From the IMG/VR virus record IMGVR_UViG_3300042294_002635: a stretch of DNA of 64,000 nucleotides. One strand, 5' to 3'. This DNA comes from an uncultured virus (IMG/VR IMGVR_UViG_3300042294_002635) (taxonomy: Duplodnaviria; Heunggongvirae; Uroviricota; Caudoviricetes). Position 1 is the stretch's first letter; the number at the start of each line of letters is the position of its first letter. The position numbers were made by a program, and so were the translations under genes. Positions 2,902-30,355 of the stretch are shown here, piece after piece. A model generated the notes under the pieces. The model searched no databases. It was not told where the DNA came from and saw only the letters and a list, made by a program, of their open reading frames with translations.

Positions 2902-3083
2902 TCTGGATCAAATTGCCGGGTGCCCTCTGCATCGTTCTGCAAACCGTTTTCATAACTTTGAAGGTAGCGGGTCAGGTTTCCTGGCCCTGGCTCACTGTGC
3001 TTTCACCGACCCTTGTGCCAATCTTTCTACTTGGGTTGGGGGGTCTTTGGTTGATTCTTCAACTACTTTCGCATGAGAAATAG
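2898..3083 (+). CDS. Small two-TM phage membrane protein
   Basis: LKVAGQVSWPWLTVLSP motif, hydrophobic. Confidence 0.7.
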   Translation: MIWIKLPGALCIVLQTVFITLKVAGQVSWPWLTVLSPTLVPIFLLGLGGLWLILQLLSHEK

Positions 3084-3086
3084 CTA

Positions 3087-3263
3087 ATGTTTACGAATCT
3101 CTCAGCTTCGTTAATGTCAGCCCAGGGTCTTCTCATCGGATTGAAATTAACGGGGCAAATATCCTGGCCATGGGTCTCGGTGCTTAGCCCGTTCATGATC
3201 TTAGGCTGTGCGTATACTTTGTTCCTCATCCTGTTAATTTTATATGCAAGGTCAGTCAAGTGA
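3087..3263 (+). CDS. Small membrane protein, tandem paralog of 2898-3083
   Basis: Manual translation, 58 aa, LKLTGQISWPWVSVLSP; not in the ORF track. Confidence 0.7.
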   Translation: MFTNLSASLMSAQGLLIGLKLTGQISWPWVSVLSPFMILGCAYTLFLILLILYARSVK

Positions 3264-3519
3264 ATCGCATAGCGAGTGGGAGATGTACTCTCAGGTTATA
3301 GAGTTTTCTTCCCTGAGAGAGTTGTACGACAGTGTCGTACAGATTGAAAGGGGGCAGGGAGTGTCGGACACTATTTCCTGGGAGGAGTTTAAGGGGCAAT
3401 TTCAGCACATACTCCAGAACACCCCCACGGAGTACAGACACTTAGATGTGAGTGTGTCTAATGCGGGGAAAGTTATTGAGTCTTACGGAGGAAGTCGCAA
3501 GGAAATTAACTTGAGCCAG

Positions 3520-3584
3520 GGCGGTTAACACTCGTCTTGGGGGCGGTTTCCGCCCTTTCCTTCGCTCAGTGAAACCGCTATAGT
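3520..3584 (+). promoter_or_regulatory. Conserved early-promoter-like element
   Basis: GGCGGTTAAC, GGCGGTTT 22 bp later, TTTCCT-17-TATAGT. Confidence 0.75.
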
Positions 3585-3625
3585 AACTGTGTGACAAACA
3601 CACTAGCTCAGTTAGCCCTAAAGTA

Positions 3626-3991
3626 ATGTGGAAGTTCAACGATCCCTTAAGTCAGTTGCGCTCTTTTCGTGACAGTTTGCTAAGGGACGACCAACACACC
3701 TACGCCACAAGGCTCGGTGAAATCGTAGAGTCCCTCGAAGAGTGGTATGAAGATGCCAGGGAGTCGAACGAAGAGGTAGAGGGCTTTGAGGAGTTAAGCA
3801 AAGTGTTCAGAGAGGCAAACTCAATCTACGAGTCTAAGCTCTCGGACGAAGCCAAGTATGACCTTATTTTCTCCAAGAAGATATCGCAAAAAGTCCCCTT
3901 CTCGTGGTACGACCCTGACACATCTTACGAAGAGGACGTAAGGTACTTTATGAACGCCTTTCGAGAATACATGGGTGGTTCTCCGCGATAG
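3626..3991 (+). CDS. Hypothetical protein
   Basis: 121 aa ORF directly downstream of a promoter element. Confidence 0.65.
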   Translation: MWKFNDPLSQLRSFRDSLLRDDQHTYATRLGEIVESLEEWYEDARESNEEVEGFEELSKVFREANSIYESKLSDEAKYDLIFSKKISQKVPFSWYDPDTSYEEDVRYFMNAFREYMGGSPR

Positions 3992-4122
3992 GTGCCGTGC
4001 GGGGGGGGGGTCTCTGCTTGAGTCCGTTTACCCCTAGCACTCCCAACCTATGATACGGATGTGGAGCTCAAAGTTCCACTCCTCGCCCCCTTAACCTCCA
4101 CCCAGCAAAGCGGTGCGAAAAC

Positions 4123-4244
4123 CGAAGAGTAGCCAAGTGGTTAGGCAGCGGTAATGCAAAAAGATTACCTAGCTTAGGTAATTCAGCAACTACCCAATAC
4201 GCAAAAGGAACCGCCATACGCAAGTTCGAATCTTGCCTCTTCGA
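4123..4244 (+). tRNA. tRNA-like RNA (possibly Cys-derived) with a 57-nt expanded anticodon loop carrying a hairpin + CAGCAA module
   Basis: Acceptor CGAAGAG/CTCTTCG, D arm GCC-AAGTGGTTA-GGC, anticodon stem GCGGT/ACCGC, T arm GCAAG-TTCGAAT-CTTGC; 4153-4209 lies between the anticodon-stem strands. Confidence 0.8.
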
Positions 4245-4262
4245 CTTTGCCTTCGGCAAACA

Positions 4263-4314
4263 TAGATAGTTCAGCGATCAAAACCTTTCTTTGCAACAGA
4301 AAACCAACTATCTA
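4263..4314 (+). ncRNA. Free-standing stem + CAGCGA + anticodon-stem-loop (GCA) RNA module
   Basis: 9-bp outer stem TAGATAGTT/AACTATCTA enclosing CAGCGA and TTTCT-TTGCAAC-AGAAA (5-bp stem, 7-nt loop). Confidence 0.65.
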
Positions 4315-4709
4315 GCTAAACCCAAACTTTATCCTCATAATGATAGTAAAAGACCTTTATTCTCGATCCAAGTAATTTGCCAAGCAAACTTAGATAGAAC
4401 AAAAGATATGACACCCACTGAAGCAGGTTTTGACGGGGAAAGGGGCATACGACTAGGAATGACGTACATGCAAGACGGCGGACTGTACCGGCTGCTACGG
4501 AGTAAAACCCCACCCACAAACTCCCAAAAGAAGTTGTTAAAGAACATGCTGATCTGGTATTACCCCGACGACAGCGACTCTAAGCTCTTGTTCTGTAACT
4601 CGGAAGGTGAGTTGTTTAACCTGACCTTTGAACCAACTAGCATAGAGCCGTAGCTCAAGGGCTAAGAAAAACTTTCAATATCGCTCCAGGTAGTTTTCGG
4701 AGCAAACAC

Positions 4710-4821
4710 GGGACCGTAGCTCAACTGGTAGAGCACGAAAAGTTATCTTGACAAAGATACATCAGCAATTAAATTACCTCTTTTAAAGGCGCGGTTGCAG
4801 GTTCGAGTCCTGCCGGTCCCA
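4710..4821 (+). tRNA. tRNA-Lys(TTT) body with a 39-nt insertion in the 5' strand of the anticodon stem
   Basis: Acceptor GGGACCG/CGGTCCC, canonical D and T arms; removing 4738-4776 restores CGCCT-CTTTTAA-AGGCG. Confidence 0.85.
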
Positions 4822-4835
4822 TTCCCATTTTTGCT

Positions 4836-5378
4836 ATGACTAACAGCAAGACCTCATTTCTCCTAACTCAAAACCACCTGAAACTGCTGAGAAGAATGCA
4901 CGTTGGGTGGAGCAACTGTGAATTCGGTGCTCCGGAAATAGACCCGAAAAGACCGTATGGCAACAGTTGGGTTATCGGAGACATACACGAAATTCTGACT
5001 GGAGAAGACCTAGAAGAATTGACCGAGTCACAGGAAGAGGAGTACAGGCAGCTCCACGAACAAACTCAAACAGCCCTCCAAATCATTCTCTCTACGGGGA
5101 AGTTTGAGGAAGGTTTGTACATGCTTACTGAACCGTATTCTTCTACTTGGGTGCGGAAAGCCATGATCAATTCCATGGCCTACAAAGACTACACAGCCAG
5201 TATGGTCTTCGATACTGAAGACATGATTATTGTTGGTCGTGTCCTAGACATCGACGACATTATCTCGTTTCACGGCGAAACGATAGCTGAATTTGAATCC
5301 AACTTTCATGCAGCCATCGAAGACTATCTAGCCGCATCGCAGGAACTTGGTTCTTCGCCGGAAAAGCCCGCAAGTTAA
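4836..5378 (+). CDS. Fusion of a phage hypothetical domain and a truncated HicB antitoxin
   Basis: From 5163: MAYKDYTASMVFD...IIVGRVLDIDDIISFHGETIAEFESNFHAAIEDYL...PEKPAS; stops where the HicB RHH domain would begin. Confidence 0.8.
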   Translation: MTNSKTSFLLTQNHLKLLRRMHVGWSNCEFGAPEIDPKRPYGNSWVIGDIHEILTGEDLEELTESQEEEYRQLHEQTQTALQIILSTGKFEEGLYMLTEPYSSTWVRKAMINSMAYKDYTASMVFDTEDMIIVGRVLDIDDIISFHGETIAEFESNFHAAIEDYLAASQELGSSPEKPAS

Positions 5379-5394
5379 GGTACTTAGGAGGTCT

Positions 5395-5432
5395 AAGGCT
5401 CGGTTTCAGGTTCGAGTCCCGCCAGTTCCATT
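5395..5432 (+). repeat. Degenerate copy of the 3' end of tRNA-Lys (4786-4823)
   Basis: 33/38 nt identical by manual alignment. Confidence 0.8.
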
Positions 5433-5444
5433 TTCACACGAACA

Positions 5445-5642
5445 ATGAACAGAGTTTCAATTGCGATCTTAGCGCTTTGCACCGCTTTATCTGGCAACGA
5501 GGCATTGTGCAAGACCCAAGTAGTGATTACAGGTAGGAACGCAGAAGAAGTACAAAGAAATGCGTTCAGGACCAAAATGAGCTACCCGCTCAGGCCTCTA
5601 AAGTGTAGTCAACGGTGCTCCCAATTGTGGGAAAGAGATTGA
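5445..5642 (+). CDS. Small protein with predicted signal peptide
   Basis: 65 aa, hydrophobic N-terminus. Confidence 0.5.
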   Translation: MNRVSIAILALCTALSGNEALCKTQVVITGRNAEEVQRNAFRTKMSYPLRPLKCSQRCSQLWERD

Positions 5643-5675
5643 GTGTGATGTGGGGACTCTCAGCCCTAAAGAAAG

Positions 5676-5719
5676 GGCGGTCTCCCGCCTTGCCTTTCCC
5701 CCATGAAAGGCGGTATGAT
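5676..5719 (+). promoter_or_regulatory. Conserved early-promoter-like element
   Basis: GGCGGTCT, TTGCCT-18-TATGAT. Confidence 0.7.
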
Positions 5720-5740
5720 TATAGCGTGTAAACGATTCAA

Positions 5741-5992
5741 ATGACAAACCTTTCCCGGTCCGCTCAGGCGGTTCTGAACACTGTCTTAAATGAAGCGGAG
5801 CCTCGATCCGCGCAGTTACAAGCGATAGCAGATGCCGCTGCCGTTCTCTGAGTCGCTGCGAATCAAGTGGTGACACCCGACCTCTGCGGCAACGACTGCT
5901 GCATCACCCAATGCGAGCAGATCCGTGCCGAACTCTTCGCCATCACCACCGAACTAGAAGGGCGGTTACCCGCCTTGCCTTGCCTTTTCTAG
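5741..5992 (+). pseudogene. Interrupted member of the LSPxAQAV...ELxAIATELE small-protein family
   Basis: MTNLSRSAQAVLN...AAAVL*VAANQVV...IRAELFAITTELEG; in-frame TGA at 5849-5851; paralogs at 39231 and 40568. Confidence 0.65.
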
Positions 5993-6056
5993 GAAAAGCT
6001 AGCCATAGGGCACCGGGCCCAAGGGTCCCGCTCCTAAGATCTCACCACGGGGAATG

Positions 6057-6100
6057 GGCGGTTTCCCGCCCCCTCTCCCTTGCCGTGAACACGCTAAAGT
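6057..6100 (+). promoter_or_regulatory. Conserved early-promoter-like element (a degenerate copy also at about 5961-6009)
   Basis: GGCGGTTTCCCGCC ... CGC-TAAAGT. Confidence 0.6.
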
Positions 6101-7016
6101 TAATCAGCTCACCTTCCACCGTCAACCATCCAATGAAATACCGCATTCGACACGAAGTATGAAACCCGAAAACCCGTACGTTCGCGCTGTAGTTGGCCTT
6201 GTGTTCTTTACTGCGGCACTCGGACTAGTAATTCAAGTGGTGGCGGCAATTGACGTGGCCATCCGTAGAGCCGATGAGCATGCCTCCAAGACTGAGAGAG
6301 AAGAAGAGAAAGTCCTAGCTGAAAAGTGCAAGTTACTGAGCAATTCGGCTCGTGCCTCCGTGTACATAACCCAAGAGCCCTTGAGCCTCTACATTTGCAG
6401 CGACCAGGGTGTCTCAACTTACTTTGTGACACGTAGGCTGTTCCCCCAGGTTTGCTCAGTTGGGCAAAGCCCCGCACCTTATACCCGCACGACTCTTTCC
6501 AAACAAACTACCCCCTTGAACGAAACAATGACCACAACACTGCGGGACCACCCACTGTCTGGCGGGCTTCGCGCAGGTTATGGGAGGGATAGGTGCTTTT
6601 GCTCTCTCACCTAAAGAAGCGGGAGAGGTGCTTCTCGGATCGAATGCAGCAGACCACTTCTTCGACACTGACAAACAAGCACTTGTTTTCCTGGAACAAG
6701 TTATTGAACGTAATTCCCATTCAGTACCCCCCACTGAGTAGTATGAAAATCACGTATAACGCACCGTCGAAAGTTGAACGCACCGTCGAACTTAACGAGT
6801 CCGATTTCCCGCCCCTTTATGGCGCGATCCGAGACTGTTTCCTGCAGAGACTTAAATCTTTCGGCTTGTCCAACCCGTTCTTCCCCTTTGAGTACGAAGC
6901 GATCGAGTTCTGTCGCACGGCGGGAGTTGATACGACTAATCGCATAGACGTGGTCGAATTCTTTGAGACGCTTCTTTTGAGGGGAACCACCGAAGCTTCA
7001 GACAATCAGGAGGGGA

Positions 7017-7460
7017 ATGAAAACGGCAATCACTAGCTTAAGGGTGGCCGAGAAGGTTTCGGTGAAGTCAGGGGACTTTCCCAACATCCCCTATCTAATT
7101 GTCAACCTAACCTGGAAAATCTCACCTGACGACTTTTACTTTCAGGCGTTCCTTGACGATACGAAAGATATCGTGCAGCAGATAAGTGTTGTAGACCCCG
7201 ATACGTGGAACGACCCGTGCTCGCTACACGAAACGAACTTTGAAAAAGTTTGGATTCCGCACGGGGATAGGTGGAGGTACATTCCAAAGTTCAACACTTT
7301 CTGGTACAAGGATTACGTTTCAGACTGCCCGGTTGTTAGGGCCACCTTAAAAGAGCTCGAACACTTTCAGCAGAGGGAAGAGTTTTCGTCGGAGTACCGG
7401 TTTTTCGATGAGAGTATTTTGTACAAGCATCTCTCGGTCTTGTGCACCTTTACGGACTGA
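7017..7460 (+). CDS. Hypothetical protein
   Basis: 147 aa ORF, ATG start. Confidence 0.55.
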   Translation: MKTAITSLRVAEKVSVKSGDFPNIPYLIVNLTWKISPDDFYFQAFLDDTKDIVQQISVVDPDTWNDPCSLHETNFEKVWIPHGDRWRYIPKFNTFWYKDYVSDCPVVRATLKELEHFQQREEFSSEYRFFDESILYKHLSVLCTFTD

Positions 7461-7798
7461 TCCGGGTAAATTACACTATACAGACCTTTCGCAGAGCAAC
7501 GTTGGAACAAACGAATAAAGAGCCAGAGTGTTGCCGCAGAAGTTTCGGCGCATCCTTGATTGACACAGCTAAACGAATGCTGGAAGATCCGTCGTTTGCC
7601 CCTCGCCAAGTGGCGAAGGACCGACTCTCAATTTGTGAGAGCAATGTGTGCGGATCCTTTGAAGAAAAAAGTTCAACCTGTGACGAGTGCGGGTGTTTTC
7701 TACCCGCTAAGACAACAATGGCAAACATGCGATGCCCGCGAGACTACTGGGTTGAGTGGGTGAGAGGGGAGTCCAATGACGCAGGAGAGGGGGCTTAA
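7442..7798 (+). CDS. Cys-rich small protein (DUF6171-like); true start probably downstream
   Basis: RLSICESNVC...CDECGCFLPAKT...CP..W. Confidence 0.65.
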   Translation: MHLYGLIRVNYTIQTFRRATLEQTNKEPECCRRSFGASLIDTAKRMLEDPSFAPRQVAKDRLSICESNVCGSFEEKSSTCDECGCFLPAKTTMANMRCPRDYWVEWVRGESNDAGEGA

Positions 7799-7859
7799 GT
7801 CAAGGGTGCCTTGCAGATAAGGTTTACTCCCCCTGTGGGACGCTATTCTAGTTATGAAA

Positions 7860-7931
7860 GCCCTGGTAGCTCAGTGGAAGAGCACTGTCCTTCTAAGACA
7901 CCGGTCGTGGGTTCGAATCCCTCTCAGGGCG
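7860..7931 (+). tRNA. tRNA-Arg(TCT)
   Basis: Acceptor GCCCTGG/TCAGGGC, loop CT-TCT-AA, T loop TTCGAAT; no encoded CCA. Confidence 0.9.
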
Positions 7932-7972
7932 TCGGTTGCCTTTGCAGCCAAACTAAACAACAACAATAAAAA

Positions 7973-8137
7973 ATGGCAAATCTTTCTATAGTTGATCGTG
8001 CCGCACGAATTAGCAGCAAAAGCCCCAGGGGAGCAAAGCTCCTTCTGAAGCTCAGCGAGGCAAGCACCGGCACTGAAGTTCAAAGTGCCCTTGACGAATT
8101 TGACCTGGCATTCGGAGTTCAAACTCCCTCTGTCTGA
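7973..8137 (+). CDS. Small hypothetical protein (54 aa)
   Basis: Manual translation MANLSIVDRAAR...EVQSALDEFDL; A-rich leader. Confidence 0.6.
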   Translation: MANLSIVDRAARISSKSPRGAKLLLKLSEASTGTEVQSALDEFDLAFGVQTPSV

Positions 8138-8179
8138 GCTTTACCTTGGGTTCCACCCCACACGGTGGTTCCCTTTCCT

Positions 8180-8268
8180 GGGCGTGTGGTGTACGGTGCA
8201 CAGGGACCCTTATACAGTCCTCTCCGGCAGATTACCGGCTAGTTAGGGTTCGACTCCCTACACGCCTA
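8180..8268 (+). tRNA. tRNA with TAT anticodon (Ile, AUA reader) and long variable arm
   Basis: Acceptor GGGCGTG/CACGCCT, loop CT-TAT-AC, variable arm CCGG-CAGATTA-CCGG, T arm TAGGG-TTCGACT-CCCTA. Confidence 0.8.
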
Positions 8269-8358
8269 CTTAGTTTCAAGTCCTCGAAAACTCGTTAAAG
8301 ATCCCACACAAAGGCCATCTTCGGTGAACGGCACAGGAGTGGCCCACCACGGTGACAA

Positions 8359-8418
8359 GGAAGAGTGGCTGAGCGGTTGAAAGCAGCAGCTTCGAACAAT
8401 GTAGAGGGTTAAACCTCC
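8359..8418 (+). pseudogene. Truncated 5' copy of tRNA-Ser(CGA)
   Basis: 56/60 nt identical to 9268-9327; lacks T arm and 3' acceptor strand. Confidence 0.85.
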
Positions 8419-8457
8419 AGGGTAAAGTAAGGGTAACTCATCACCCCCACCTAAGTC

Positions 8458-9321
8458 GTGAAAATAGAAGCCGTTATTGTTTGCGTAAACTACTCAGACT
8501 TTTTGGCGCATACCTTACCCAGCACCAGAAATCAGTTTGACAAACTTGTAGTTGTTACCGATAGTAAAGATAAAGATACTAAAAAACTGTGCGAATACTA
8601 CAACGTGGAATGTGTTCAGACAGATGTGTTCTATGACGGCGGTGACGCATTCAATAAGGGCAAAGGAATAAATGCGGGGTTAGAAAAGCTAAGCCAGGAC
8701 GGATGGGTTCTGCACCTGGACTCAGACATTTATTTGCCACCTCAAACACGGTCAACTTTGGAAAATTTACCTTTAATCGAAGACAAAATCTATGGGGCCG
8801 ACCGTCTAATGTGCCCTGGCTACGAAGAGTGGTTGAGATTCTTAGATAAACCCTCCCCCATCCAAGACTCTTGGATTTTTATCCACCCGACAAGATTCCC
8901 GGTCGGGGTTAGAGTTGCAGAGTACAAAACTTGGCACGGTGGCTATGAGCCTATTGGGTATTTCCAGCTATGGAATCCTAAGGGGTCAGGAATTTCGCGA
9001 TACCCTGACAAGCATGGGTTTGCGGACCGTACTGATGTAATGCACTGTAAAGAGTGGCCTCGAGAAAAAAGAGAATTGTTGCCTGAAATCCTTGTCATAC
9101 ACTTAGAAAGCGAGGCCGGAATCGGCCTAAATTGGAAAGGTAGAAAGACCCCTATGTTTGGGCCCAAGCTTCCCCTGCCTGTCTTATCTTGGCCAGACAA
9201 ACTGTTTCTGTTTTTGAACAAATTAAGTAAGTGCGGTTACAAACCTAACCGTAAATACCAAAGAAGTGGAAGAGTGGCTGAGCGGCCGAAAGCAGCAGCT
9301 TCGAAAACTGTAGAGGGTTAA
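8458..9321 (+). CDS. GT-A fold (family 2-like) glycosyltransferase
   Basis: VIVCVNYSDFL, FNKGKGINAGL, WVLHLDSDI (DxD), GYFQL; 3' end runs into tRNA-Ser. Confidence 0.8.
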   Translation: MKIEAVIVCVNYSDFLAHTLPSTRNQFDKLVVVTDSKDKDTKKLCEYYNVECVQTDVFYDGGDAFNKGKGINAGLEKLSQDGWVLHLDSDIYLPPQTRSTLENLPLIEDKIYGADRLMCPGYEEWLRFLDKPSPIQDSWIFIHPTRFPVGVRVAEYKTWHGGYEPIGYFQLWNPKGSGISRYPDKHGFADRTDVMHCKEWPREKRELLPEILVIHLESEAGIGLNWKGRKTPMFGPKLPLPVLSWPDKLFLFLNKLSKCGYKPNRKYQRSGRVAERPKAAASKTVEG

Positions 9322-9352
9322 ACCTCCGGGGGTTCAAATCCCCCCTCTTCCG
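9268..9352 (+). tRNA. tRNA-Ser(CGA)
   Basis: Acceptor GGAAGAG/CTCTTCC, G discriminator, loop TT-CGA-AA, long variable arm. Confidence 0.9.
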
Positions 9353-9419
9353 TTTACGGTTTCCCCTTTGAACACTCGAAGGTTCAACGGCGCTAAAGAA
9401 ACCGTTATACACATGCAAA

Positions 9420-9737
9420 ATGACAATTAAAGACAAACCAGAATTCGTGAATGAAGTGATTTCACGAGTGATTAACAACGCACCAATAAGCGAAGTTCTC
9501 CGCGTATACTCTCTCTCCGTGAAAGCGGCAATTGACGAGCTTGACGACGACGGCTTCTTTCAGGCCGTGCTTAACGCGGGGTACACTGACCTAATTGAAA
9601 AGTACGCTGACTTAGACGACCTTGACGAATTTGTTGAGGGTTTCTCGGGTAGTGGGGGAAGTGTGGTCTACGAGAACACAGGAAGGTCGGAAGTTCAAAG
9701 TGCTCTTGACGAGCTTAACCTTGACGTTGGTCTTTGA
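9420..9737 (+). CDS. Hypothetical acidic protein
   Basis: 105 aa ORF; C-terminal EVQSALDE shared with ORF 7973. Confidence 0.6.
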   Translation: MTIKDKPEFVNEVISRVINNAPISEVLRVYSLSVKAAIDELDDDGFFQAVLNAGYTDLIEKYADLDDLDEFVEGFSGSGGSVVYENTGRSEVQSALDELNLDVGL

Positions 9738-12027: not shown

Positions 12028-12501
12028 ATGGAAAACATACCCGAAGCACCCGAAGCATACGTGATGGTCGGAGCCCCTGGGTCCGGAAAGTCGACTCATG
12101 TATCAAAGCTGCTAAGTCTTCACCCAGATGCCGTTGTAATTTCCGGCGATGAAATCCGCGCTGAGCTCTACGGAAACGCGGACATTCTAGGAAATTACGT
12201 AGAAATCCACGACCGCATGCTTGAGATTCTGGAGGAGAGTGTAGGTCGGACTATAGTTATGGATGGTACCCACTACAAGGCAGCTTACCGCAAGGAAGCA
12301 ATTGCTACGCTGAACTCGTACGGTTACGATAAGGTTACTGCAGTAGTCATTGAAAAGCCCCTCACCGTTTGCCTACACCAGAATGCTTCTCGCGAGCGCA
12401 GGGTTCCGGAAGAAGTGATTGAGCGCATGCACGCCTCCTTACAAGCTTCCCTCAAGAATATCACCAACGAACCCTTCCACCGTATTGACTTTGTATACTG
12501 A
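12028..12501 (+). CDS. Polynucleotide-kinase-like P-loop kinase (AAA_33)
   Basis: GAPGSGKST, ISGDEIR, MDGTH, RERRVPEEVIERM. Confidence 0.85.
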   Translation: MENIPEAPEAYVMVGAPGSGKSTHVSKLLSLHPDAVVISGDEIRAELYGNADILGNYVEIHDRMLEILEESVGRTIVMDGTHYKAAYRKEAIATLNSYGYDKVTAVVIEKPLTVCLHQNASRERRVPEEVIERMHASLQASLKNITNEPFHRIDFVY

Positions 12502-12505
12502 CGCA

Positions 12506-13234
12506 ATGATAACTTACAGCAACAAATTACATCAAGGTGACGTAGTTGCCCTGGGGGACATTCACGCGACATGGACTCTTTTCGAACAATTTCTGAATTG
12601 GGTGAAAGGGTCTCAAGCCACTGTCGTACTTTTAGGTGACATGGTTGATCGTGGTGGGGGTGACCTGAAAGTTTTGGAGCATACGAAAAATCTCCTCGAC
12701 GATCCGGAAAGTTGGGGGCTTCAAGCCTTTTATGCCCTGATGGGGAACCACGAGAGGATGTTTCTTGATGCTTTGGAAGACCCATTCGGCAGTAGCTACG
12801 TGCTGTGGGTTCAAAACGGCGGAAACTATGACCAAGTGGGTGAAATGGAGAGGGAACATAAGGAGTGGGTTCGAAATCTACCCTTGTATATGACAATTGC
12901 GGACACTCTCTTCATTCACGCGGGGATCTACCCCGGTCACGACCCTGCAAAGCTCATTGCCGATGGAAGAGGCGAGGCACTCCTGTGGATTCGACAACCT
13001 TTCTTGACCTATGGGCCGGAGTTCGAAGGGTGGAACCCACGACTTAAGAAAGTCGTTCATGGTCACACACCAACCAACTTCGAGGAACCACCTCAGGACC
13101 ACCTCCCCGTTGTGAAGGGACAACGCGTAAATATAGATACGGGTGCGTTTATTAAGACGAAGGGTCGCCTAACCGCTTACAACGTCACTCAAAATACTTT
13201 TCACCAATTTTCACGGCAACCTCGCAAGGACTAG
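12506..13234 (+). CDS. Calcineurin-like Ser/Thr phosphatase (metallophosphoesterase)
   Basis: GDIH, GDMVDRG, GNHE, HAG, GHTP, IDTG. Confidence 0.9.
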   Translation: MITYSNKLHQGDVVALGDIHATWTLFEQFLNWVKGSQATVVLLGDMVDRGGGDLKVLEHTKNLLDDPESWGLQAFYALMGNHERMFLDALEDPFGSSYVLWVQNGGNYDQVGEMEREHKEWVRNLPLYMTIADTLFIHAGIYPGHDPAKLIADGRGEALLWIRQPFLTYGPEFEGWNPRLKKVVHGHTPTNFEEPPQDHLPVVKGQRVNIDTGAFIKTKGRLTAYNVTQNTFHQFSRQPRKD

Positions 13235-20701: not shown

Positions 20702-22189
20702 ATGACATTTGTGACAGAAAACTTAACGAAGAGTTCTAAAGCTGCTTCGAACGGAAATGAAAAATGCAACGATAACTGTTCTGTGAGTGAAGCCGTTGTC
20801 TGTGATTTACGCTCTCGCCCGGAACCTCGTCGAATTGACCTCGACAAACTATACGAGTGCGACCCGAAAGACTACATTGGCTATTTCGCCGACGAAACCT
20901 CTTACGACAACCTTATTCAAGAAGACTGCGACGTTTATGTGGGCGGAGTGAAAGTTGTTGCCTTTCGTAAGGCACTTTTTCCGAAGCTGCGCGATGGTTC
21001 GAAAGGTAGCCCGGAAACTTGGAAATACTTCCGCTGGGCAGCAAGAGACTTGTACTCAGACCAACGAGGCCTAGTTGCTGGTAGAGAACTAACTACCCAA
21101 CTCGAAATAAGGGTAACCAACGGTATTCTAAACTTCTTCAAGAAGGCGATGGCCGGTCAAGTCACTGACGTGGAAGAGGCACTGAAAATTGCTTCTCTCT
21201 CCCCCGACATGTCAAAGCTCACTGTCCGAGTGAATGATGTTAAAAAGGACTTCCCAGAAATTGAGAAAGCTTTAGAATCTATCGAGAAGGAACTTCGCAA
21301 GAAAACGCTGAGCGAAGAGAGAAAGGTAGAGCTGAAGGAAGCGAAGGGTAGGGAACTTGCGAAGTGGTTCCCGACTTGGCTGTCTGAGACTTGGAGTGCA
21401 TCTACGGATAAGGTTTCTGAGGCGAAACGTGCCGACGACAGGTATGTGGGAAAACAATACCGTTCAAACAAGTGCTATTCCAACGTGATTGGTGCTTTTG
21501 ATAGGGGTGCACGTAACCCTTACGGTCGCCTAACTGCAACTACCGTTCGAGATTACGAAGGGTTCGTCAGTCACACTGATATTTATCAGACCGCGTGCTC
21601 TGCGCTCAAAGAGACCTTAAACACTCCGGAAAACCCTAGGTGGGACCTCCTTCACGAACGGTTCAGTAACGTGAAAGACCCGCACTATAACCTCTTCGGT
21701 ACGGTGTTCACTGCCCTTACGTTAAACTGGAACTTCCGCTGTGCGATGCACTATGATGGAAATAACTGTGAAGGGGGTATCGCCGTTCTTACCGCAATTA
21801 CCCAAGGTGACTATGACGGTCACTACCTTGTGTTCCCTGAAATTCGTTGCGCTTTCGACCTTCGTGATGGGGACTTTATTGCCGGTGACAATCAGGGACT
21901 GATTCACGGTAACACTGCAATGATTCCGAAGACGCCGGACGCTGAACGAGTTTCGTTCGTTTTCTATTCACGAGAGCGCATGACCGCTCTTGACGATATG
22001 GAGTGTGAGGAGTGCCGCCGAGATTTCATGCGATACGCAGCAGACAATCACAAGGAGTATGGAAAGGGTCACAAGACCTGGAATGGTGTTTGGAGCGGAA
22101 TGTGGAAATCACCGGAATGGATGTCGTATAAAGCCAAACACGGCATGGAACGTTGCTCAAACACCAACTACTGGGGCACCGAGAATTAA
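20702..22189 (+). CDS. TET/JBP-family 2OG-Fe(II) dioxygenase, copy 1
   Basis: TVFTALTLNWNFRCAMHYDGNN (HxD), LVFPE, IHGNT, ERVSFVFYSRE, Trp-rich tail WNGVWSGMWKSPEW. Confidence 0.85.
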   Translation: MTFVTENLTKSSKAASNGNEKCNDNCSVSEAVVCDLRSRPEPRRIDLDKLYECDPKDYIGYFADETSYDNLIQEDCDVYVGGVKVVAFRKALFPKLRDGSKGSPETWKYFRWAARDLYSDQRGLVAGRELTTQLEIRVTNGILNFFKKAMAGQVTDVEEALKIASLSPDMSKLTVRVNDVKKDFPEIEKALESIEKELRKKTLSEERKVELKEAKGRELAKWFPTWLSETWSASTDKVSEAKRADDRYVGKQYRSNKCYSNVIGAFDRGARNPYGRLTATTVRDYEGFVSHTDIYQTACSALKETLNTPENPRWDLLHERFSNVKDPHYNLFGTVFTALTLNWNFRCAMHYDGNNCEGGIAVLTAITQGDYDGHYLVFPEIRCAFDLRDGDFIAGDNQGLIHGNTAMIPKTPDAERVSFVFYSRERMTALDDMECEECRRDFMRYAADNHKEYGKGHKTWNGVWSGMWKSPEWMSYKAKHGMERCSNTNYWGTEN

Positions 22190-22241
22190 CCCTGAAGCCG
22201 CCAAAGCGGCAGTTAATGAACGAAACACAGAATTACTAACA

Positions 22242-22706
22242 ATGGACACAAACAAACAGCTTAACGGTGGCTACGCGGAGCGGCAAGTTGCCTCGGGGAT
22301 TAATGACCCCCGTGAATCAACAACCCCCCTTACAGACGAACAAATGTTCGGTCGCACTCGAACAAACTCTGCGGGAATAACCTACTCCCCAAGAGACATT
22401 GCCGAGGAGCGGCAAGTTGCCTCAGGGATTAGTGACCCCCGTGAAGCAACAACCGCCATTACAGTGGAACTCCCTGTAAACTTCGCTGAGGCTTTTCGAG
22501 CACTTGCTGAACAAGAGGAGTTGTCGGAGAGTAACCTTATTGTACGATCGCTCGGGCTCTACTCCGTTGCATCTCAAGCCGAGAGTGAAGGGTACGGACT
22601 AACGTTCACTCGCATCGAAGGAACCAATGACCTGACCGCCAAGGAAGCAATTCGCATCGAAGATGAGCCCGCGTCTAACTTGATTCTTCCTGGAAATAGG
22701 CAATGA
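22242..22706 (+). CDS. Mosaic protein with internal repeat and possible ribbon-helix-helix domain
   Basis: ERQVASGI.DPRE twice; ITVELP...FRALAEQEELSESNLIVRSL. Confidence 0.55.
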   Translation: MDTNKQLNGGYAERQVASGINDPRESTTPLTDEQMFGRTRTNSAGITYSPRDIAEERQVASGISDPREATTAITVELPVNFAEAFRALAEQEELSESNLIVRSLGLYSVASQAESEGYGLTFTRIEGTNDLTAKEAIRIEDEPASNLILPGNRQ

Positions 22707-24190
22707 TCCGAGAGGTAATATCAAAAGAGTTACAGTCAAGGGTCGAACCCTTACAGATTGATAGGGGTGCTCTTGAATACTGCCCTCGCAGTGAATATAT
22801 TGGACAATTCCCTAAGGCGACAGACTATGACCGCGTAATCGATGAAGACTGTGATGTTTACGTCTCAGGTGTAAAAGTCTTGTCCTTCCGGAAAGCTCTT
22901 TTCCCACTTCTTTCCGAGGGTTCTTCCAAACAGAAGGAGACTTGGGACTTTTTCCGAGCAGCTTCAAAAGAAGTTTACGGCACCCAAAGAGGTGTCGTTG
23001 CGGGCACAGAGTTTACAACTCGCCCCGAATCACGCTTAACTAAAGGACAGGTTGCCTTTTTCGCTGGTGCTTCCGTGGGCTTGATCACAACGCTCGCTCA
23101 AGCGCGAGAAGCCCTAGAAAGTTCGGATGAGCTCACCAGCAAGACTCTGAAAATCAAATACGTGAAGAAAGACTACCCCGAACTTGCGGAGAAAATGAAA
23201 CCGTTAGAGGCGGAAATTCGCACACTGAACTCCGAAGACCCGAAACTAGAAAGTCTGAGAAACCAGAGAAGAGAACCGCTTTGGGGTTGGTTCGAATCTT
23301 GGTTACTAGAAGTTTGGCTGCCCTCAGAAAACAAAGTCGAAGAAGTTAAAAAAGTTCTAAACACTTACATAAGTTCCCAGTTGAACTTTAACCACTGCTA
23401 CAGTAACGTCCTTGGGGCAATTGACCGTGGGGCTAGATTCCCCTACGGTCGTTTAAGCGGAACCACTCAGAGATACTATGAGCAGTTCTCAAAATACAAA
23501 GACATTTATTTCACAGCCTGCGAAGGTTTCAGGTACAATTTTCCGGAGACTTGGGTCAAAGTCAAGGAAGTGATTTCGAGGGCTAAAGACCCTAACTACA
23601 ACTTGTTCGGCACTGCCTTTACGAGTGTAACCGTAAATTTCAATTTCAAGACTGCCTACCACGTTGACAAGAACAATTTGAAAGGGAGTATGGCCGTCTT
23701 AACTGCTTTTACAAAAGGTGTTTATGAAGGTCACTACTTAGTGTTTCCCGAAGTGAGATTGGCCTTCAATTTAAGAGACGGGGACTTCATCGTAGGGGAT
23801 ACTCAAACTTTGCTCCATGGTAACAGCCCCATGACAAAACTTACTGAAGATGCTGAGCGGGTTTCTCTGGTTTTCTACTCACGAGAGAACATGACCCGAT
23901 TGGACGATCTTGAGTGCGAAGAATGCCGAAAACAGTTCATGAAGTTTTCACTTCAGTCTCTGAAAGAACGGGGCAAAGATCATAAAGATTGGAGAGGTGG
24001 TTGGCAAGGTATGTGGACTTCTCAAGAATGGCTAGACTTTAGAAAAGAAAGAAACTTGGAACACTGTTCAAACTCTAATTGGCAGCTTTCCTCGCCGTAC
24101 GAGAACGACGTTACGAAAGAGGTGAAGTTGTTCAAGGATGATCCAGGCGAAGGGTGGAAACTCGTACAAGTGTTTACACAAGATCGGTAA
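22703..24190 (+). CDS. TET/JBP-family 2OG-Fe(II) dioxygenase, copy 2
   Basis: [22 protein letters not shown] (HxD), [16 protein letters not shown]; collinear with copy 1. Confidence 0.85.
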
Positions 24191-24246
24191 ACCGCCCTGA
24201 AGCCTTCGGCTTCCCCCTTGTTTCTGCTTCGCATAAATGCTATGAT
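24185..24246 (+). promoter_or_regulatory. Conserved early-promoter-like element (variant)
   Basis: CGGTAAACC, TTGTTT-17-TATGAT. Confidence 0.65.
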
Positions 24247-24252
24247 TGTTTT

Positions 24253-24843
24253 ATGGAAATCTACTTCAGCACAGACGTTGAGACCGACGGACCGATCCCC
24301 GGACCTAACAGCATGCTTTCGCTCGGGTCGGCTGCGTTCTCACCCGATGGGATACTCCTAAGCACCTTCTCGGTGAACCTGGAGACCCTACCCGGAGCCG
24401 AGCCGGACCCCACTACCCAAGCGTGGTGGGAGGCCCACCCAAAGGCTTACAGAGCCTCTCGGGAGCATACCTGGAGCCCGGACCAAGCCATGTTGCTCTT
24501 CTCGGGTTGGGTTGACCAGACCGTGAAAGCTAACAGTAACCAAGGTTCAGGTGGTCGGAAAGCCTTGCCCGTATTCGTGGGTTTTCCTGCAGGGTTTGAC
24601 TTTCTTTTCGTGTATTGGTACCTCATTCGATTCACCGGGAAGTCCCCATTTAGCTTCTCGGCTCTTGACGGTAAGACCTATGCTATGGCCTTGCTCAAAA
24701 GAGGATACCGGGAGTCCACCAAACGGAACTACCCAAAGGAGTGGTTTCCACTCGAAAACAAGCACACTCACATCGCTGTGGATGATGCCATCGAGCAAGG
24801 TCGTATTTTCTGCAATATGCTTCGATCCAATCTTAATGACTGA
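24253..24843 (+). CDS. DEDDh 3'-5' exonuclease (Rv2179c / RNase AS-like)
   Basis: [28 protein letters not shown]. Confidence 0.85.
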
Positions 24844-25024
24844 CGAAGTTAAAGATTACTGCGAAAAACTTAGCTTGTCCCTAAAGTTAAGGGGAGAGGG
24901 AAACGAGGACGCGGAGGAGGCCTTGCTCTACGAGCTTGACCTTCTGTGGCTTAAGTTGTCGAGAGAAGAGACCCAGTGGGTTAATGCCAATATACTGTCG
25001 TTGTTACCTAACTAACTGCCCACC

Positions 25025-25789
25025 GTGATGAAAAATCCTACTTTCCTACTCCAGTCCGGAGGACCACTACAAATCGAAAAGGTTGCGTGTAGTTTCTCCT
25101 GTTACCCTGTTCGATATTGCTCGTTTGATGATCTGTCGAAGTTAGACCCTAAAGGTTTCATGGCTACATTGATTCCTGTGGGTTCGGTGGAATTTGTTCA
25201 AGCTTACAGTGAACACGCAGGTGTTGTGCTACCTGAAGACTTTTCCTATGGGCACGGGGGGGAGCTGGAAAAGTACCTTATGAGGCCGGTTCGACAGGGA
25301 GTGTACGGCGAAGCAACCCCAGAAGACTTTGTGAAGCCAACCGCAATAAAGTTGTTTACCGGTGGAATCAAAGGGGACCTCGAACTGAAGTCACCTGGAC
25401 TAATTTCCGATAACACTTCTGTGTGGATCTCTCAGGCCGTGCCCTTTGAGTCGGAATTTCGGTTCTACATTCACGACTTCATTGGGGGTGGTAAAATTCA
25501 GGGGTGGTCGCGGTACGATGACAAGCCCGTAAGAAACCCCGAACCCGACTTCGGCCTGATTGAAGAGATTATGGGTGTGCTAGAGGCAAATATTGCGCCT
25601 GGTGCTTACACGATTGACATCGGGTGGAGGCCTGACCTGAATCGGTACTGCCTAGTTGAACTTAACGATGCGTGGTCACTGGGATTTTACGAAAATAGTG
25701 ACCCGCAATCGAACCCACCAACTCGACAGCAGTACGCTGACATGCTGGTGTCTCGCTGGAGACAAATTATCTTTTGCAACCTAGTGTAA
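25025..25789 (+). CDS. ATP-grasp protein (R2K / DUF4343-like)
   Basis: PVGSVEFV, FVKP..IKLFTG, SEFRFYI, YTIDIG, LVELNDAWSLGFY. Confidence 0.8.
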   Translation: MMKNPTFLLQSGGPLQIEKVACSFSCYPVRYCSFDDLSKLDPKGFMATLIPVGSVEFVQAYSEHAGVVLPEDFSYGHGGELEKYLMRPVRQGVYGEATPEDFVKPTAIKLFTGGIKGDLELKSPGLISDNTSVWISQAVPFESEFRFYIHDFIGGGKIQGWSRYDDKPVRNPEPDFGLIEEIMGVLEANIAPGAYTIDIGWRPDLNRYCLVELNDAWSLGFYENSDPQSNPPTRQQYADMLVSRWRQIIFCNLV

Positions 25790-25877
25790 CCACTGGATAA
25801 CACAGTCGGAGATAAGAGGACGCGGCAAACGTCTACTCTTGACGCTCCAACAACAGTCACATCAACTGAACTCAAAT

Positions 25878-26705
25878 ATGGACTATCAGATTGCCATCCC
25901 AACTTACGGACGGCCCGAGGGAGTGAAGAAACTCACTCTAAATTACCTTGAAAAAACAGACATTAATTGTTCCCACGTGACTTTGTTCGTGGCAAACGAT
26001 GAAGAGAAGGAAGTTTATCAGAGTTCAAACCCCACCTACAATATCGTTGTTGGTGAAAAGGGTTTGACAAGACAACGTCACTTCATCTCTAACTTTTACG
26101 ACAAAGGGACTCCTATTTTTTCGTTCGACGACGACGTTAGCGCCGTTGAGGAACTTGAGCTTCTGGAGAATCTCGAGGGAACTCAGAAGCCACTCGACCA
26201 CCCGTGTCGCCTGAAAACCGTGGTGGAGCTATCAGAGCTTATTGATCGAGGATTCCGAATGTGCAAGCGGCGCGATATTGGCCTGTTCGGTTTCTATGCC
26301 GTTCGCAACAAGGGTTTTCTTCACCCAAAGGTGACTGTGGGGCTCAAGTTCATTATGGGCCACGCATTTGGTTTCTACGCAGGCGACCCAGCCTTTGAGC
26401 TAATCACTGAGTACAGTATGAAGGACGACTACTTCTTGTCTCTGTACCACACTGTTAACGGAAACGGGACACTGCGATTCGACAACATTTGTGTGAAAGC
26501 TAAACAGCACACAGGGGGTGGCGGAACCTGTGAAGACCTGGAGCGAAAGCTTCAGATCAATAATCAAACCGTAGAGAAACTTTGTGCCGAGTTTCCTGAC
26601 CTCGCGAGTCCAAAGAGCCGTCGAACAAAGGATGAGTGGCTTTCCCGGTACTCTGAAATCCGCCTCAAAACCATAACAAACGAGACAATCTCAGTGTTTA
26701 ACTGA
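25878..26705 (+). CDS. TET-associated / GREB1-like GT-A glycosyltransferase
   Basis: YQIAIPTYGRP, LFVAN..E...Y, GL..QR.FI, FDDD, KDDY, GGG. Confidence 0.8.
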   Translation: MDYQIAIPTYGRPEGVKKLTLNYLEKTDINCSHVTLFVANDEEKEVYQSSNPTYNIVVGEKGLTRQRHFISNFYDKGTPIFSFDDDVSAVEELELLENLEGTQKPLDHPCRLKTVVELSELIDRGFRMCKRRDIGLFGFYAVRNKGFLHPKVTVGLKFIMGHAFGFYAGDPAFELITEYSMKDDYFLSLYHTVNGNGTLRFDNICVKAKQHTGGGGTCEDLERKLQINNQTVEKLCAEFPDLASPKSRRTKDEWLSRYSEIRLKTITNETISVFN

Positions 26706-26711
26706 GCACCA

Positions 26712-26755
26712 AGGCGGTTTTCCGCCCTTTACTGTATGATCCTCCTCCCTATGTT
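26712..26755 (+). promoter_or_regulatory. Conserved promoter-like element (weak copy)
   Basis: GGCGGTTTTCCGCCC-TTTACT ... TATGTT. Confidence 0.5.
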
Positions 26756-29722: not shown

Positions 29723-30355
29723 ATGGAATCCCACACCAATTACCCCAGGACTTTTCATCTCCCTTGGTCAGAAGCTGTAACGTCTGACGACAAGGTTGTT
29801 CCGTCCGTCGTTCATTTTGAGGGCAACCTCGTGGTTGTGACGGAAAAGATGGACGGTGAGAATACAACGATGTACCGAGACTATGTTCACGCCAGGAGCC
29901 TGGACAGCAAAGGTGGTGAAGACCGCGCATGGGTGAAGCAATTCTGGGCTTCGATCCGTAGTGAAATCCCTGAAGGGTGGCGAATCTGTGGTGAAAACCT
30001 CTGGGCGAAACATTCTGTTTCTTACTCCAACTTGCACTCATACTTTTACGGGTTTAGCATTTTTGACGAGCACAACCGGGCATTGTCATGGGAGGACACT
30101 GAAGACTACTTTGAAATGTTAGGGGTCACCCCTGTTCCCGTTCTTTACTCTGGACTCTGGGACGAGACCGTGGCCCTTAATCTGGCAAAGGGCCTGGACA
30201 CCAACACGACAGAAGGCTATGTAGTTCGCCTTGCTGATTCCTTTCACTACGATAACTTTAGCACTTCTGTTGCTAAGTTTGTCCGTAAAGGTCACGTTCA
30301 AACTGACAAGCACTGGAGGACGCAGCAGCTTGTACCTAACTCTTTAGTAACCTAA
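29723..30355 (+). CDS. RNA ligase (ATP-dependent nucleotidyltransferase domain)
   Basis: YPRTFHLPWS, motif I EKMDGEN, ICGENL, EGYVVR, AKFVR. Confidence 0.88.
   Translation: MESHTNYPRTFHLPWSEAVTSDDKVVPSVVHFEGNLVVVTEKMDGENTTMYRDYVHARSLDSKGGEDRAWVKQFWASIRSEIPEGWRICGENLWAKHSVSYSNLHSYFYGFSIFDEHNRALSWEDTEDYFEMLGVTPVPVLYSGLWDETVALNLAKGLDTNTTEGYVVRLADSFHYDNFSTSVAKFVRKGHVQTDKHWRTQQLVPNSLVT

Follow-up and report, generated by a model that had tools for sequence, protein, structure and literature searches.

The DNA analyzed here—64,000 nucleotides (nt) of one strand, referred to throughout as the window—comes from an uncultured virus of the Caudoviricetes (IMG/VR record IMGVR_UViG_3300042294_002635), a myovirus-like phage from lake water that we regard as a cyanophage. 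Four features on its + strand concern us most: a DUF2828/DUF7788 gene at 1423–2901, which encodes 492 amino acids (aa); a tRNA-like gene, T1, at 4123–4244; a 52-nt element at 4263–4314, which lies 1.4 kilobases (kb) downstream of the large gene on the same strand; and a second tRNA-like gene, T2, at 4710–4821. The 52-nt element, hereafter the mini, is our main subject, and the product of the large gene, hereafter the Ro-like gene, is its proposed protein partner. Is the mini a functional RNA, and is it to this phage protein what a Y RNA is to Ro60?

Read from 5′ to 3′ on the + strand, the mini is made up of an outer strand, TAGATAGTT (4263–4271); the motif CAGCGA (4272–4277); an 8-nt linker (4278–4285); an inner stem of TTTCT (4286–4290) and AGAAA (4298–4302) around the 7-nt loop TTGCAAC (4291–4297); the letters ACC (4303–4305); and a second outer strand, AACTATCTA (4306–4314), the complement of 4263–4271. 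This is exactly the order given by the first-pass annotation, which had been made from the letters alone, and it describes an open-type element whose 9-base-pair (bp) outer stem leads through an asymmetric internal loop to the inner hairpin at 4286–4302. RNA folding, which the annotation had suggested as a check, gave a mixed answer: both the outer stem and the inner hairpin can form, but on its own the mini folds weakly (minimum free energy −8.6 kcal/mol, z = −1.66), and RNAfold picks the inner hairpin only when the interior is folded by itself. By our estimate, chance alone supplies several 9-bp inverted repeats at such spacing per 64 kb. Simple structural scans that allow G-U pairs were as noisy as shuffled sequence (47 matches vs. 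a shuffle mean of 18.6 and a maximum of 40), and these loose scans were abandoned for stricter criteria. We regard the mini as more than a chance structure because it is conserved, both by covariance model and among its relatives.

How widely is the mini conserved? Through the neighboring Ro-like gene, we gathered 18 related viral loci, and the mini follows T1 at the same place in 14 of them. A second, gene-blind approach used a DNA pattern consisting of the two stem strands and the motif; scanned over 2.9 million viral contigs, it returned 35 loci, of which three (L021, L022, and L041) were dropped because they represent a single match that arose by chance within a coding sequence of the opposite strand, leaving 32 true copies. 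At the stem position that the pattern leaves free on both strands, A stands with T or G with C in all 29 distinct sequences. The open form recurs in 37 distinct sequences, and over these relatives the outer stem is 98.2% paired, with compensatory (both-side) changes in four of its nine pairs and a score that none of 500 shuffles reached, statistics that are partly circular for a reason given below. A covariance model (R1) of 32 members, from which the window and the relatives sharing the mini's interior were excluded, finds the mini at 4262–4315 on the + strand with 55 bits (E = 1e-10), the sole strong match in the window. On the − strand, that position reaches 12.5 bits (E = 1.3), and the second-best match in the window, at 18.1 bits (E = 0.06), is the leader of the Ro-like gene (1372–1417, + strand). 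What is conserved is the outer helix together with a single-stranded CAGC(A/G)A—CAGCGA in the mini, CAGCAA in most relatives—and this conservation is strand-specific. In many contigs, minis alternate with insert-bearing tRNA-like genes in arrays, and some variants have a different outer stem or enclose a T arm. Larger open-type members (L012 13264–13349, L013 12306–12390, L052 1147–1201, and the L035 locus) carry a hairpin that resembles a T arm (GGTTCGATTCC-type loop), some of them with another hairpin besides; they form a bridge between the minis and the YrlA-like RNAs discussed below. A blastn search of 3000–9500 against named phages returned tRNA-sized matches only.

These results bear directly on the most trivial explanations, namely that the mini is an inverted repeat that arose by chance, that it serves T1 as an intrinsic terminator, or that it is where the coding of the open reading frame (ORF) at 4291 begins. 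Such readings could draw on the weak fold and on the ORF itself, which starts with TTG, encodes 120 aa, and overlaps the mini, but they are at odds with the covariance-model E value of 1e-10 and with the constant position in 14 of the 18 loci. Nothing terminator-like (i.e., a GC-rich hairpin with a U run) lies in 3900–4900; the mini's outer stem is followed by GCTAAACCC. Coding constraint, which the first-pass annotation had itself named as the alternative, also fails, since the TTG lies in a loop that is missing from close relatives, a 2-nt length difference separates them, and such length changes break the frame. This failure favors an RNA, and the conserved reading frame behind the mini plausibly starts at ATG 4408. 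We give these trivial readings next to no credence. Kink-turn, hammerhead, attC-site, and miniature inverted-repeat transposable element readings were set aside as well, their defining sequence features being a misfit.

How does the mini relate to the two tRNA-like genes that flank it? Rfam finds four tRNAs in the window, and two of them, T1 (44.7 bits) and T2 (48.5 bits), have large inserts in the anticodon arm. T1 keeps the acceptor, D, and T arms and the 5-bp anticodon stem, and a conserved 57-nt domain, with a closed module at 4163–4189, replaces its anticodon loop. The T1 hairpin covaries; in L012, L015, and L016, G-U replaces the window's G-C. Deletion of any single segment fails to give T1 a 7-nt loop with U33, leaving no usable anticodon loop, and T1 looks like a tRNA-shaped noncoding RNA, not a decoder. 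In T2, the 5′ strand of the anticodon stem is interrupted by a 39-nt insert (4738–4776), which has a closed module at 4744–4768, and beyond it the distal stem and the loop CTTTTAA (Lys UUU) are intact; by its sequence, T2 reads cleanly as a derivative of tRNA-Lys(UUU). ARAGORN in intron mode called T1 Leu(CAG) and T2 Gly(ACC), both with poor stems; these calls were rejected, T2 being better described as Lys(UUU) and T1 yielding no 7-nt loop with U33.

In both closed modules, the order is strand B, a short loop, strand A, and then CAGCAA. The first-pass annotation had called the mini a circular permutation of the tRNA inserts, and the comparison bears this out on a broad base: the closed form is present in all 30 distinct long (110–128 nt) tRNA matches examined (28 by script and 2, with variant motifs, by eye), and the open form in the 37 sequences described above. 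Strand A and the motif are also alike in T1, T2, and the mini (UAGRUARUU, then CAGCRA), and this likeness in primary sequence means that "circular permutation" relates homologous parts and is not an analogy only.

What lies inside the outer stem of the minis? In L010, L012, L013, L015, and L016, a second ("alpha") copy comes immediately after the stop codon of the Ro-like gene. The copies behind T1 and those behind the gene differ at one outer-stem pair, which is A-T in one type and G-C in the other; the former have a variable interior, and the latter have the interior of the window's mini, which itself joins the outer stem of one type to the interior of the other. In L001 and L002, the large protein is 99–100% identical to that of the window, yet the mini has another interior. 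The interior is exchangeable. This matters for the proposal that the mini is an anticodon-arm mimic displaying GCA—for example, a decoy for anticodon nucleases or for enzymes that read anticodon loops. The anticodon-arm geometry seen in this copy by the first-pass annotation (5 bp, a 7-nt loop, U before GCA, and a purine after it) is indeed there, and the five alpha paralogues share the 5-bp stem, the 7-nt loop, U at position 2, and A at position 6 (loops UUGCAAC, UUGUAAC, and UUUCAAC). The equivalent hairpin in the tRNA-embedded versions is, moreover, a real anticodon arm. As a family trait, however, the "minimal anticodon mimic" did not survive a survey of the loops. Inner loops range from 3 to 13 nt; a 7-nt loop is found in only 8 of the 37 distinct members, and a U33/R37 fit in 7; and even among the alpha copies the triplet varies (GCA, GUA, and UCA) while the stem is constant. 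The 15 other members that share this copy's outer stem have loops of 5–13 nt, and the single 7-nt loop among them has C at position 2. With the closest relatives carrying another interior as well, we consider mimicry very unlikely, and tenable only for this copy and its five paralogues. The anticodon-like hairpin found here is better understood as cargo that can be exchanged, or else as what is left of an ancestor embedded in a tRNA.

Could the closed modules be introns at an unusual site of the anticodon stem, excised so that functional tRNAs result, or mobile elements, with the minis as solo or permuted copies of a splicing or mobility signal? In T2 and many of its relatives, the canonical stem of 5 bp and loop of 7 nt reappear once the insert is removed, and nucleotide 37 then suits the anticodon (G37 for Pro UGG; A37 for Thr UGU, Arg UCU, Lys UUU, Asn GUU, and Val UAC). 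The mini's mixture of outer-stem and interior types points to recombination, and the window encodes a P-loop kinase (AAA_33), a calcineurin-type phosphoesterase, and an RNA ligase (PF09414) at 12028–13234 and 29723–30355, possibly an RNA healing-and-sealing set; enzymes of these classes heal and seal cut tRNAs in phages (T4 Pnkp/Rnl1). Against this stands T1, which has no recoverable anticodon loop and yet is kept in 16 of the 18 related loci, as is T2. The T2 loop is CUUUUAA in the window and AUUUUAA, ACGUUAA, CGUUUAA, or AGGUUAA in relatives, and the last three of these five variants lack U33. Orthologues share an acceptor stem and differ in anticodon: other insert-bearing tRNA-like genes combine near-identical acceptor stems with UGG, UGU, UCU, and UCG. 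There are no known self-splicing or bulge-helix-bulge features, Rfam reports only tRNA, and contigs from four RNA runs hold no joined (spliced) form, an observation of little weight because contigs drop rare forms. Split tRNAs of Nanoarchaeum and permuted tRNA genes of red algae rely on a bulge-helix-bulge motif and an archaeal or eukaryotic splicing endonuclease and yield working tRNAs. Like these and like intron-bearing tRNA genes, the present system has a helix by the anticodon stem that is either closed (an insert) or open (two ends); unlike split and permuted tRNAs, the mini holds no tRNA body, and T1 is without an anticodon loop. An intron-like or mobile element is, in our view, quite improbable.

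What kind of protein does the neighboring gene encode? Pfam matches the 492-aa product to DUF7788 (E = 3.9e-51) and DUF2828 (E = 1.1e-33) and to nothing else, and NCBIfam has no match to it. An AlphaFold (AF2) model built on 64 diverse sequences has a predicted local distance difference test score (pLDDT) of 92.3 and a predicted template modeling score (pTM) of 0.90. Compared with the PDB by Foldseek at E < 0.001, it matches Ro60, Rsr, and phage Ro60 structures in all 12 of the matches listed (13 were counted), over the full length and at template modeling (TM) scores of 0.52–0.60. Among them are phiRo60 of phage phiLo (9kop, E = 2e-7), which leads the matches together with 9l5y; a Xenopus structure (1yvr, TM 0.60/0.57); human Ro60; and Deinococcus Rsr (2nvo). 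The model thus predicts a Ro60 fold—a TROVE-type ring and a vWA domain—for a protein that is not a proven Ro60 orthologue. Some GenBank records of homologues are already labeled "Ro-like RNA binding protein," and the gene family is large, with 702 phage records and 6,883 protein clusters at 50% identity.

The second-best covariance-model match leads to the leader of this same gene. There, at 1373–1416 on the + strand, an 8-bp stem of AAGTTGAT with ATCAACTT has ACAGC right after its 5′ strand and ends 6 nt before the ATG. The element is kept in L007, L012, L013, L015, and phage B3. The Ro-like gene starts at ATG 1423, and upstream of it relatives differ in length by numbers not divisible by three. 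On this comparative evidence, the leader element suggests that the protein may regulate its own translation.

Does the module travel with the Ro-like gene beyond the loci that were gathered through it? The gene is near 30 of the 32 true gene-blind copies: within the 1.5-kb flank in 26 cases and on the same contig in four more (L026, L035, and L023 and L028, whose contigs were already known to carry it). No gene was seen with L044, which lies in a 9,960-base fragment, or with L050, which abuts a contig end. The closest cultured phages are the Synechococcus phages B3 and B23 (62.8% identity); B3 has three minis and one insert-bearing tRNA-like gene behind its Ro-like gene. In L017 (44% identity, very AT-rich), three elements lie upstream of the gene: a TATAAT box precedes one of them, and another, with CAGCAA, directly adjoins the ribosome-binding site of the gene, analogous to the window's 1373–1416. 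We also sampled eight named phages at 33–44% identity from the 702 records, with hosts in Vibrio, Mycobacterium, Listeria, Salmonella, Staphylococcus, Campylobacter, Bacillus, and Rhizobium. Across these eight phages, stems ≥7 bp long that lead into CAGCAA number 23 in the sense and one in the antisense direction (100 dinucleotide shuffles gave a mean of 1.76 and a maximum of 6), and seven of the eight are positive. According to the annotation tables, 21 of the 23 sense elements are in unannotated gaps beside the gene or between tRNA genes. The stems differ completely among these distant phages while CAGCAA is constant. The module travels with the Ro-fold gene across phyla and between very distant phages, and it does so in four settings: as free minis, in the gene's 5′ leader, as stems around a T arm or a YrlA-type core, and closed within anticodon stems.

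How does the mini compare with known Y RNAs? Canonical features of Y RNAs include a terminal stem formed by the 5′ and 3′ ends, an internal loop with a conserved motif on its 5′ strand, and a second stem (PMC12135203). The mini has the same architecture—terminal stem, internal loop with the motif on the 5′ strand, second stem—and, just as Y RNAs are encoded beside a Ro60/Rsr gene, it has for a neighbor the gene at 1423–2901, whose predicted product has a Ro60 fold over its full length. In YrlA, the Rsr-binding stem stands at the place of the tRNA anticodon stem, and GNCGAAN0-1G lies near the 5′ end (Chen et al. 2014, PMC4201824). In the mycobacteriophage Lolly9, a CAGCAA stem (L056 3045–3171) surrounds a T arm, an acceptor-like stem that is closed, and a D arm, and the Rfam YrlA model matches this core with 37.7 bits (E = 6e-5, model positions 23–89 of 114), below the gathering score of 69; the match comprises the whole tRNA-like core without the canonical Rsr-binding ends. 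In this RNA, the position of YrlA's Rsr-binding stem is occupied by the CAGCAA stem. By the same comparison, T1, T2, and their kin, with the module at the anticodon stem and the acceptor end open, represent the YrlA-like arrangement cut elsewhere. The mini, in contrast to YrlA with its T arm, closed acceptor stem, and D arm, holds no more than a small hairpin between its stem strands. The YrlA model (RF02553) itself finds nothing in 4000–9500 with a cutoff of E = 5, nor anywhere in the window at the gathering score, and in 15 cyanophage-type loci Rfam gave only tRNA and no Y RNA.

YrlB is a shorter Y RNA without a tRNA-like domain and, going by this general description, the nearest analogue of the mini. 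The present system resembles YrlA and YrlB in its adjacent Ro60-fold gene, in having often several RNAs in a row, and in the modular joining of a stem to a variable or tRNA-like domain. It differs from both in that the proposed partner is a DUF2828/DUF7788 protein and not a sequence-detectable TROVE protein, and from YrlA in that the module also occurs loop-closed, in the reverse topology, inside otherwise normal tRNA cloverleaves. Because YrlA's defining motif is absent and its Rfam model does not match, we have filed the mini as a Y-RNA-type relative with a Ro60-fold protein and not as a YrlA member. The phage table of Chen et al. has cluster C mycobacteriophages, Bacillus phage G, and CcrColossus, and none of the groups found here (PMC4201824).

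Two further phage systems invite comparison. The Thermus phage phiLo likewise combines a Ro60 homologue, phiRo60, with adjacent small Y-like RNAs, Yrl1 and Yrl2, of stem-bulge-stem form; those RNAs were chosen by their CGAA motif and their binding was shown by experiment (PMC12135203), whereas the motif here is a different one and binding is proposed from comparison. In Listeria phage cka15, three highly transcribed noncoding regions lie within 2 kb upstream of CKA15_055, which is Rsr-like by HHpred and present in virions, and the authors raise Y RNAs as one explanation (PMC12282133). CKA15_055 is 39% identical to the window's protein and next to tRNA genes, and three CAGCAA stems lie directly upstream of it; the study's account of its transcribed regions, unlike ours, defines no motif or structure for them (PMC12282133). 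One of these regions, at 26,236–26,727 (L063 678–1169), is a very highly transcribed noncoding RNA of ~490 nt that has its own strong promoter and no CAGCAA stem. The literature that we searched describes neither a module of the CAGCAA type nor any RNA partner for DUF2828 proteins, although bacterial Y-RNA reviews outside our search may describe phage Y RNAs.

Is the mini expressed? Upstream of T1 and the mini there is a promoter-like site at 4027–4054 on the + strand (TTTACC, 16 nt, TATGAT), a weak match with 9 of 12 consensus letters. Strong promoter matches end 7–8 nt before the mini's first base in L019 (12 of 12 consensus letters) and in phage B3. Part of the stretch is present in 18 DNA-type and 6 RNA sequencing runs, and contigs from four lake metatranscriptome runs cover the T1, mini, small ORF, and T2 of a close relative. 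Contig ends near 4815–4823 and bins without cover carry little weight, as these are contigs only.

What, then, could the module be for? It may be described as a helix with a purine-rich 5′ strand (AGRURRUU), followed directly or after 2–4 nt by a single-stranded CAGCAA. The conservation of helix and motif, the freedom of the interior, the linkage to the gene, the copy in the gene's leader, and the replacement of the YrlA stem are most simply accounted for if the module is the binding site of the Ro60-fold protein encoded 1.4 kb upstream. It would then be the counterpart of the terminal stem and CGAA-type motif by which Y RNAs bind Ro60/Rsr, and we think it probable, on balance, that the mini is a minimal Y-RNA-like partner of the phage Ro60-fold protein. 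As such, the mini would be cotranscribed with T1 from the promoter-like site at 4027–4054 and released, at a length of ~55 nt, by the same nucleases as trim the tRNA-like RNAs next to it. The ring protein would bind it, and the minis would either gate or regulate the protein in the manner of Y RNAs or provide it with its smallest scaffolds. Copies embedded in tRNAs could tether the protein to tRNA-shaped RNAs, as part of a phage set for RNA repair or tRNA quality control; the kinase, phosphoesterase, and RNA ligase described above are encoded in this same window.

Several observations weigh against a Ro-type partnership. At the level of sequence, the protein has no TROVE or Ro60 match (Pfam at E up to 10; phmmer against the PDB at E up to 1), and the known Ro-binding motif, GNCGAAN0-1G or CGAA (GGUCCGA in vertebrates), is replaced here by CAGC(A/G)A (PMC4201824, PMC12135203). 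At ~52–56 nt, the mini is also short of the 80–130 nt of described Y RNAs (PMC4201824). Most family members beyond the gene-blind scan came from scans that demand complementarity, which makes the pairing statistics partly circular. The metatranscriptome evidence consists of contigs only, from libraries in which DNA is possible, and shows neither ends nor strand. Vibrio phage nt-1 has the gene and no element by the scan for a stem with CAGCAA, and overlap of the transcribed regions of cka15 with the CAGCAA stems is unproven, the region at 26,236–26,727 being a separate RNA. The Ro-like gene, moreover, usually adjoins tRNA gene clusters (in six of the eight sampled phages), and the module could belong to the biology of tRNA arrays, processing for example, and be tied to the gene by shared position only.

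This last point leads to the main rival explanation: that the module is a punctuation or processing element of the tRNA-like arrays, which separates adjacent tRNA-like RNAs of a polycistronic precursor, guides or blocks host RNases, and protects ends and has no specific tie to the Ro-like protein. In keeping with it, array minis stand 3–6 nt from the ends of the flanking tRNA-like genes, and the elements of Salmonella phage SP116 lie between tRNA genes. Processing leaves unexplained, however, why copies occur in the gene's own 5′ leader, why closed copies sit in anticodon stems and a stem surrounds a YrlA-type core, and why, with stems that differ, phages as far apart as cyanophages and mycobacteriophages all retain a single-stranded CAGCAA. 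We rate it unlikely but deserving of some weight.

A number of other features of the window may be recorded here. Between T1 and the mini, a small hairpin at 4246–4260 on the + strand has a 5-bp stem and the loop CTTCG; at the equivalent place, relatives differ in sequence and are self-complementary as well. Behind T2, a 180-aa ORF with a HicB-like C-terminal part (4836–5378) starts 15 nt after the tRNA-like gene and is followed at ~5397–5430 by a copy of the last ~36 nt of T2, a duplicate that is found in most related loci; the ORF looks like a gene inserted at a tRNA 3′ end with target duplication. A second gene is lodged in a duplicated tRNA further on: a partial 5′ copy of tRNA-Ser(CGA) at 8359–8445 precedes a family-2 glycosyltransferase ORF (8458–9321), the end of which overlaps the full tRNA-Ser gene at 9267–9353. 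At 8180–8269 lies a 90-nt tRNA-like gene with a long extra arm, which ARAGORN calls Ile(UAU) and Rfam matches weakly to tRNA-Sec (23.7 bits). Two TET/JBP-type dioxygenase genes, an ATP-grasp gene, and a TET-associated glycosyltransferase gene at 20702–26705 are likely to serve DNA base hypermodification. Also encoded in the window are a sheath protein, a Mu-type portal, a polymerase that carries an exonuclease domain of gamma type, and a DUF1517 protein of cyanobacterial type.

What might these findings mean for the DUF2828/DUF7788 family as a whole? A broader reading, which we hold tentatively and put at somewhat short of an even chance, is that the family forms a large phage Ro60 branch whose ligand is a portable, previously undescribed "helix plus CAGCAA" module. 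This module would be carried in free RNAs, in the protein's own mRNA leader (autoregulation), in YrlA-like tRNA mimics, and in tRNA anticodon stems, with the ring protein tethered to tRNA-shaped RNAs or gating them. The open and closed forms would be circular permutations of one protein-binding junction, i.e., a putative RNA-binding module used in circularly permuted forms, and the protection, repair, or replacement of tRNAs hit by host anticodon nucleases is a plausible purpose. If this broader reading is true, model phages would be among the carriers: Felixounavirus, P100/A511-like Listeria phages, Staphylococcus phage 6ec, Campylobacter Fletchervirus, and cluster L mycobacteriophages. Annotation pipelines flag "pseudo-tRNAs" in these phages that have long inserts in the anticodon arm, such as the insert-bearing gene of phage B3 that GenBank labels tRNA-Pseudo-GCA, and the module would account for them as well. 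Ro60 and its Y RNAs form a conserved RNA quality-control system whose roles in bacteria and phages are poorly understood. A second, much larger phage branch of Ro60 would here gain a defined RNA ligand, with a motif short enough to mutate. In tractable phage–host pairs, such as E. coli with Felixounaviruses, Mycobacterium smegmatis with cluster L phages, or Synechococcus with phage B3, this would open the system to direct tests.

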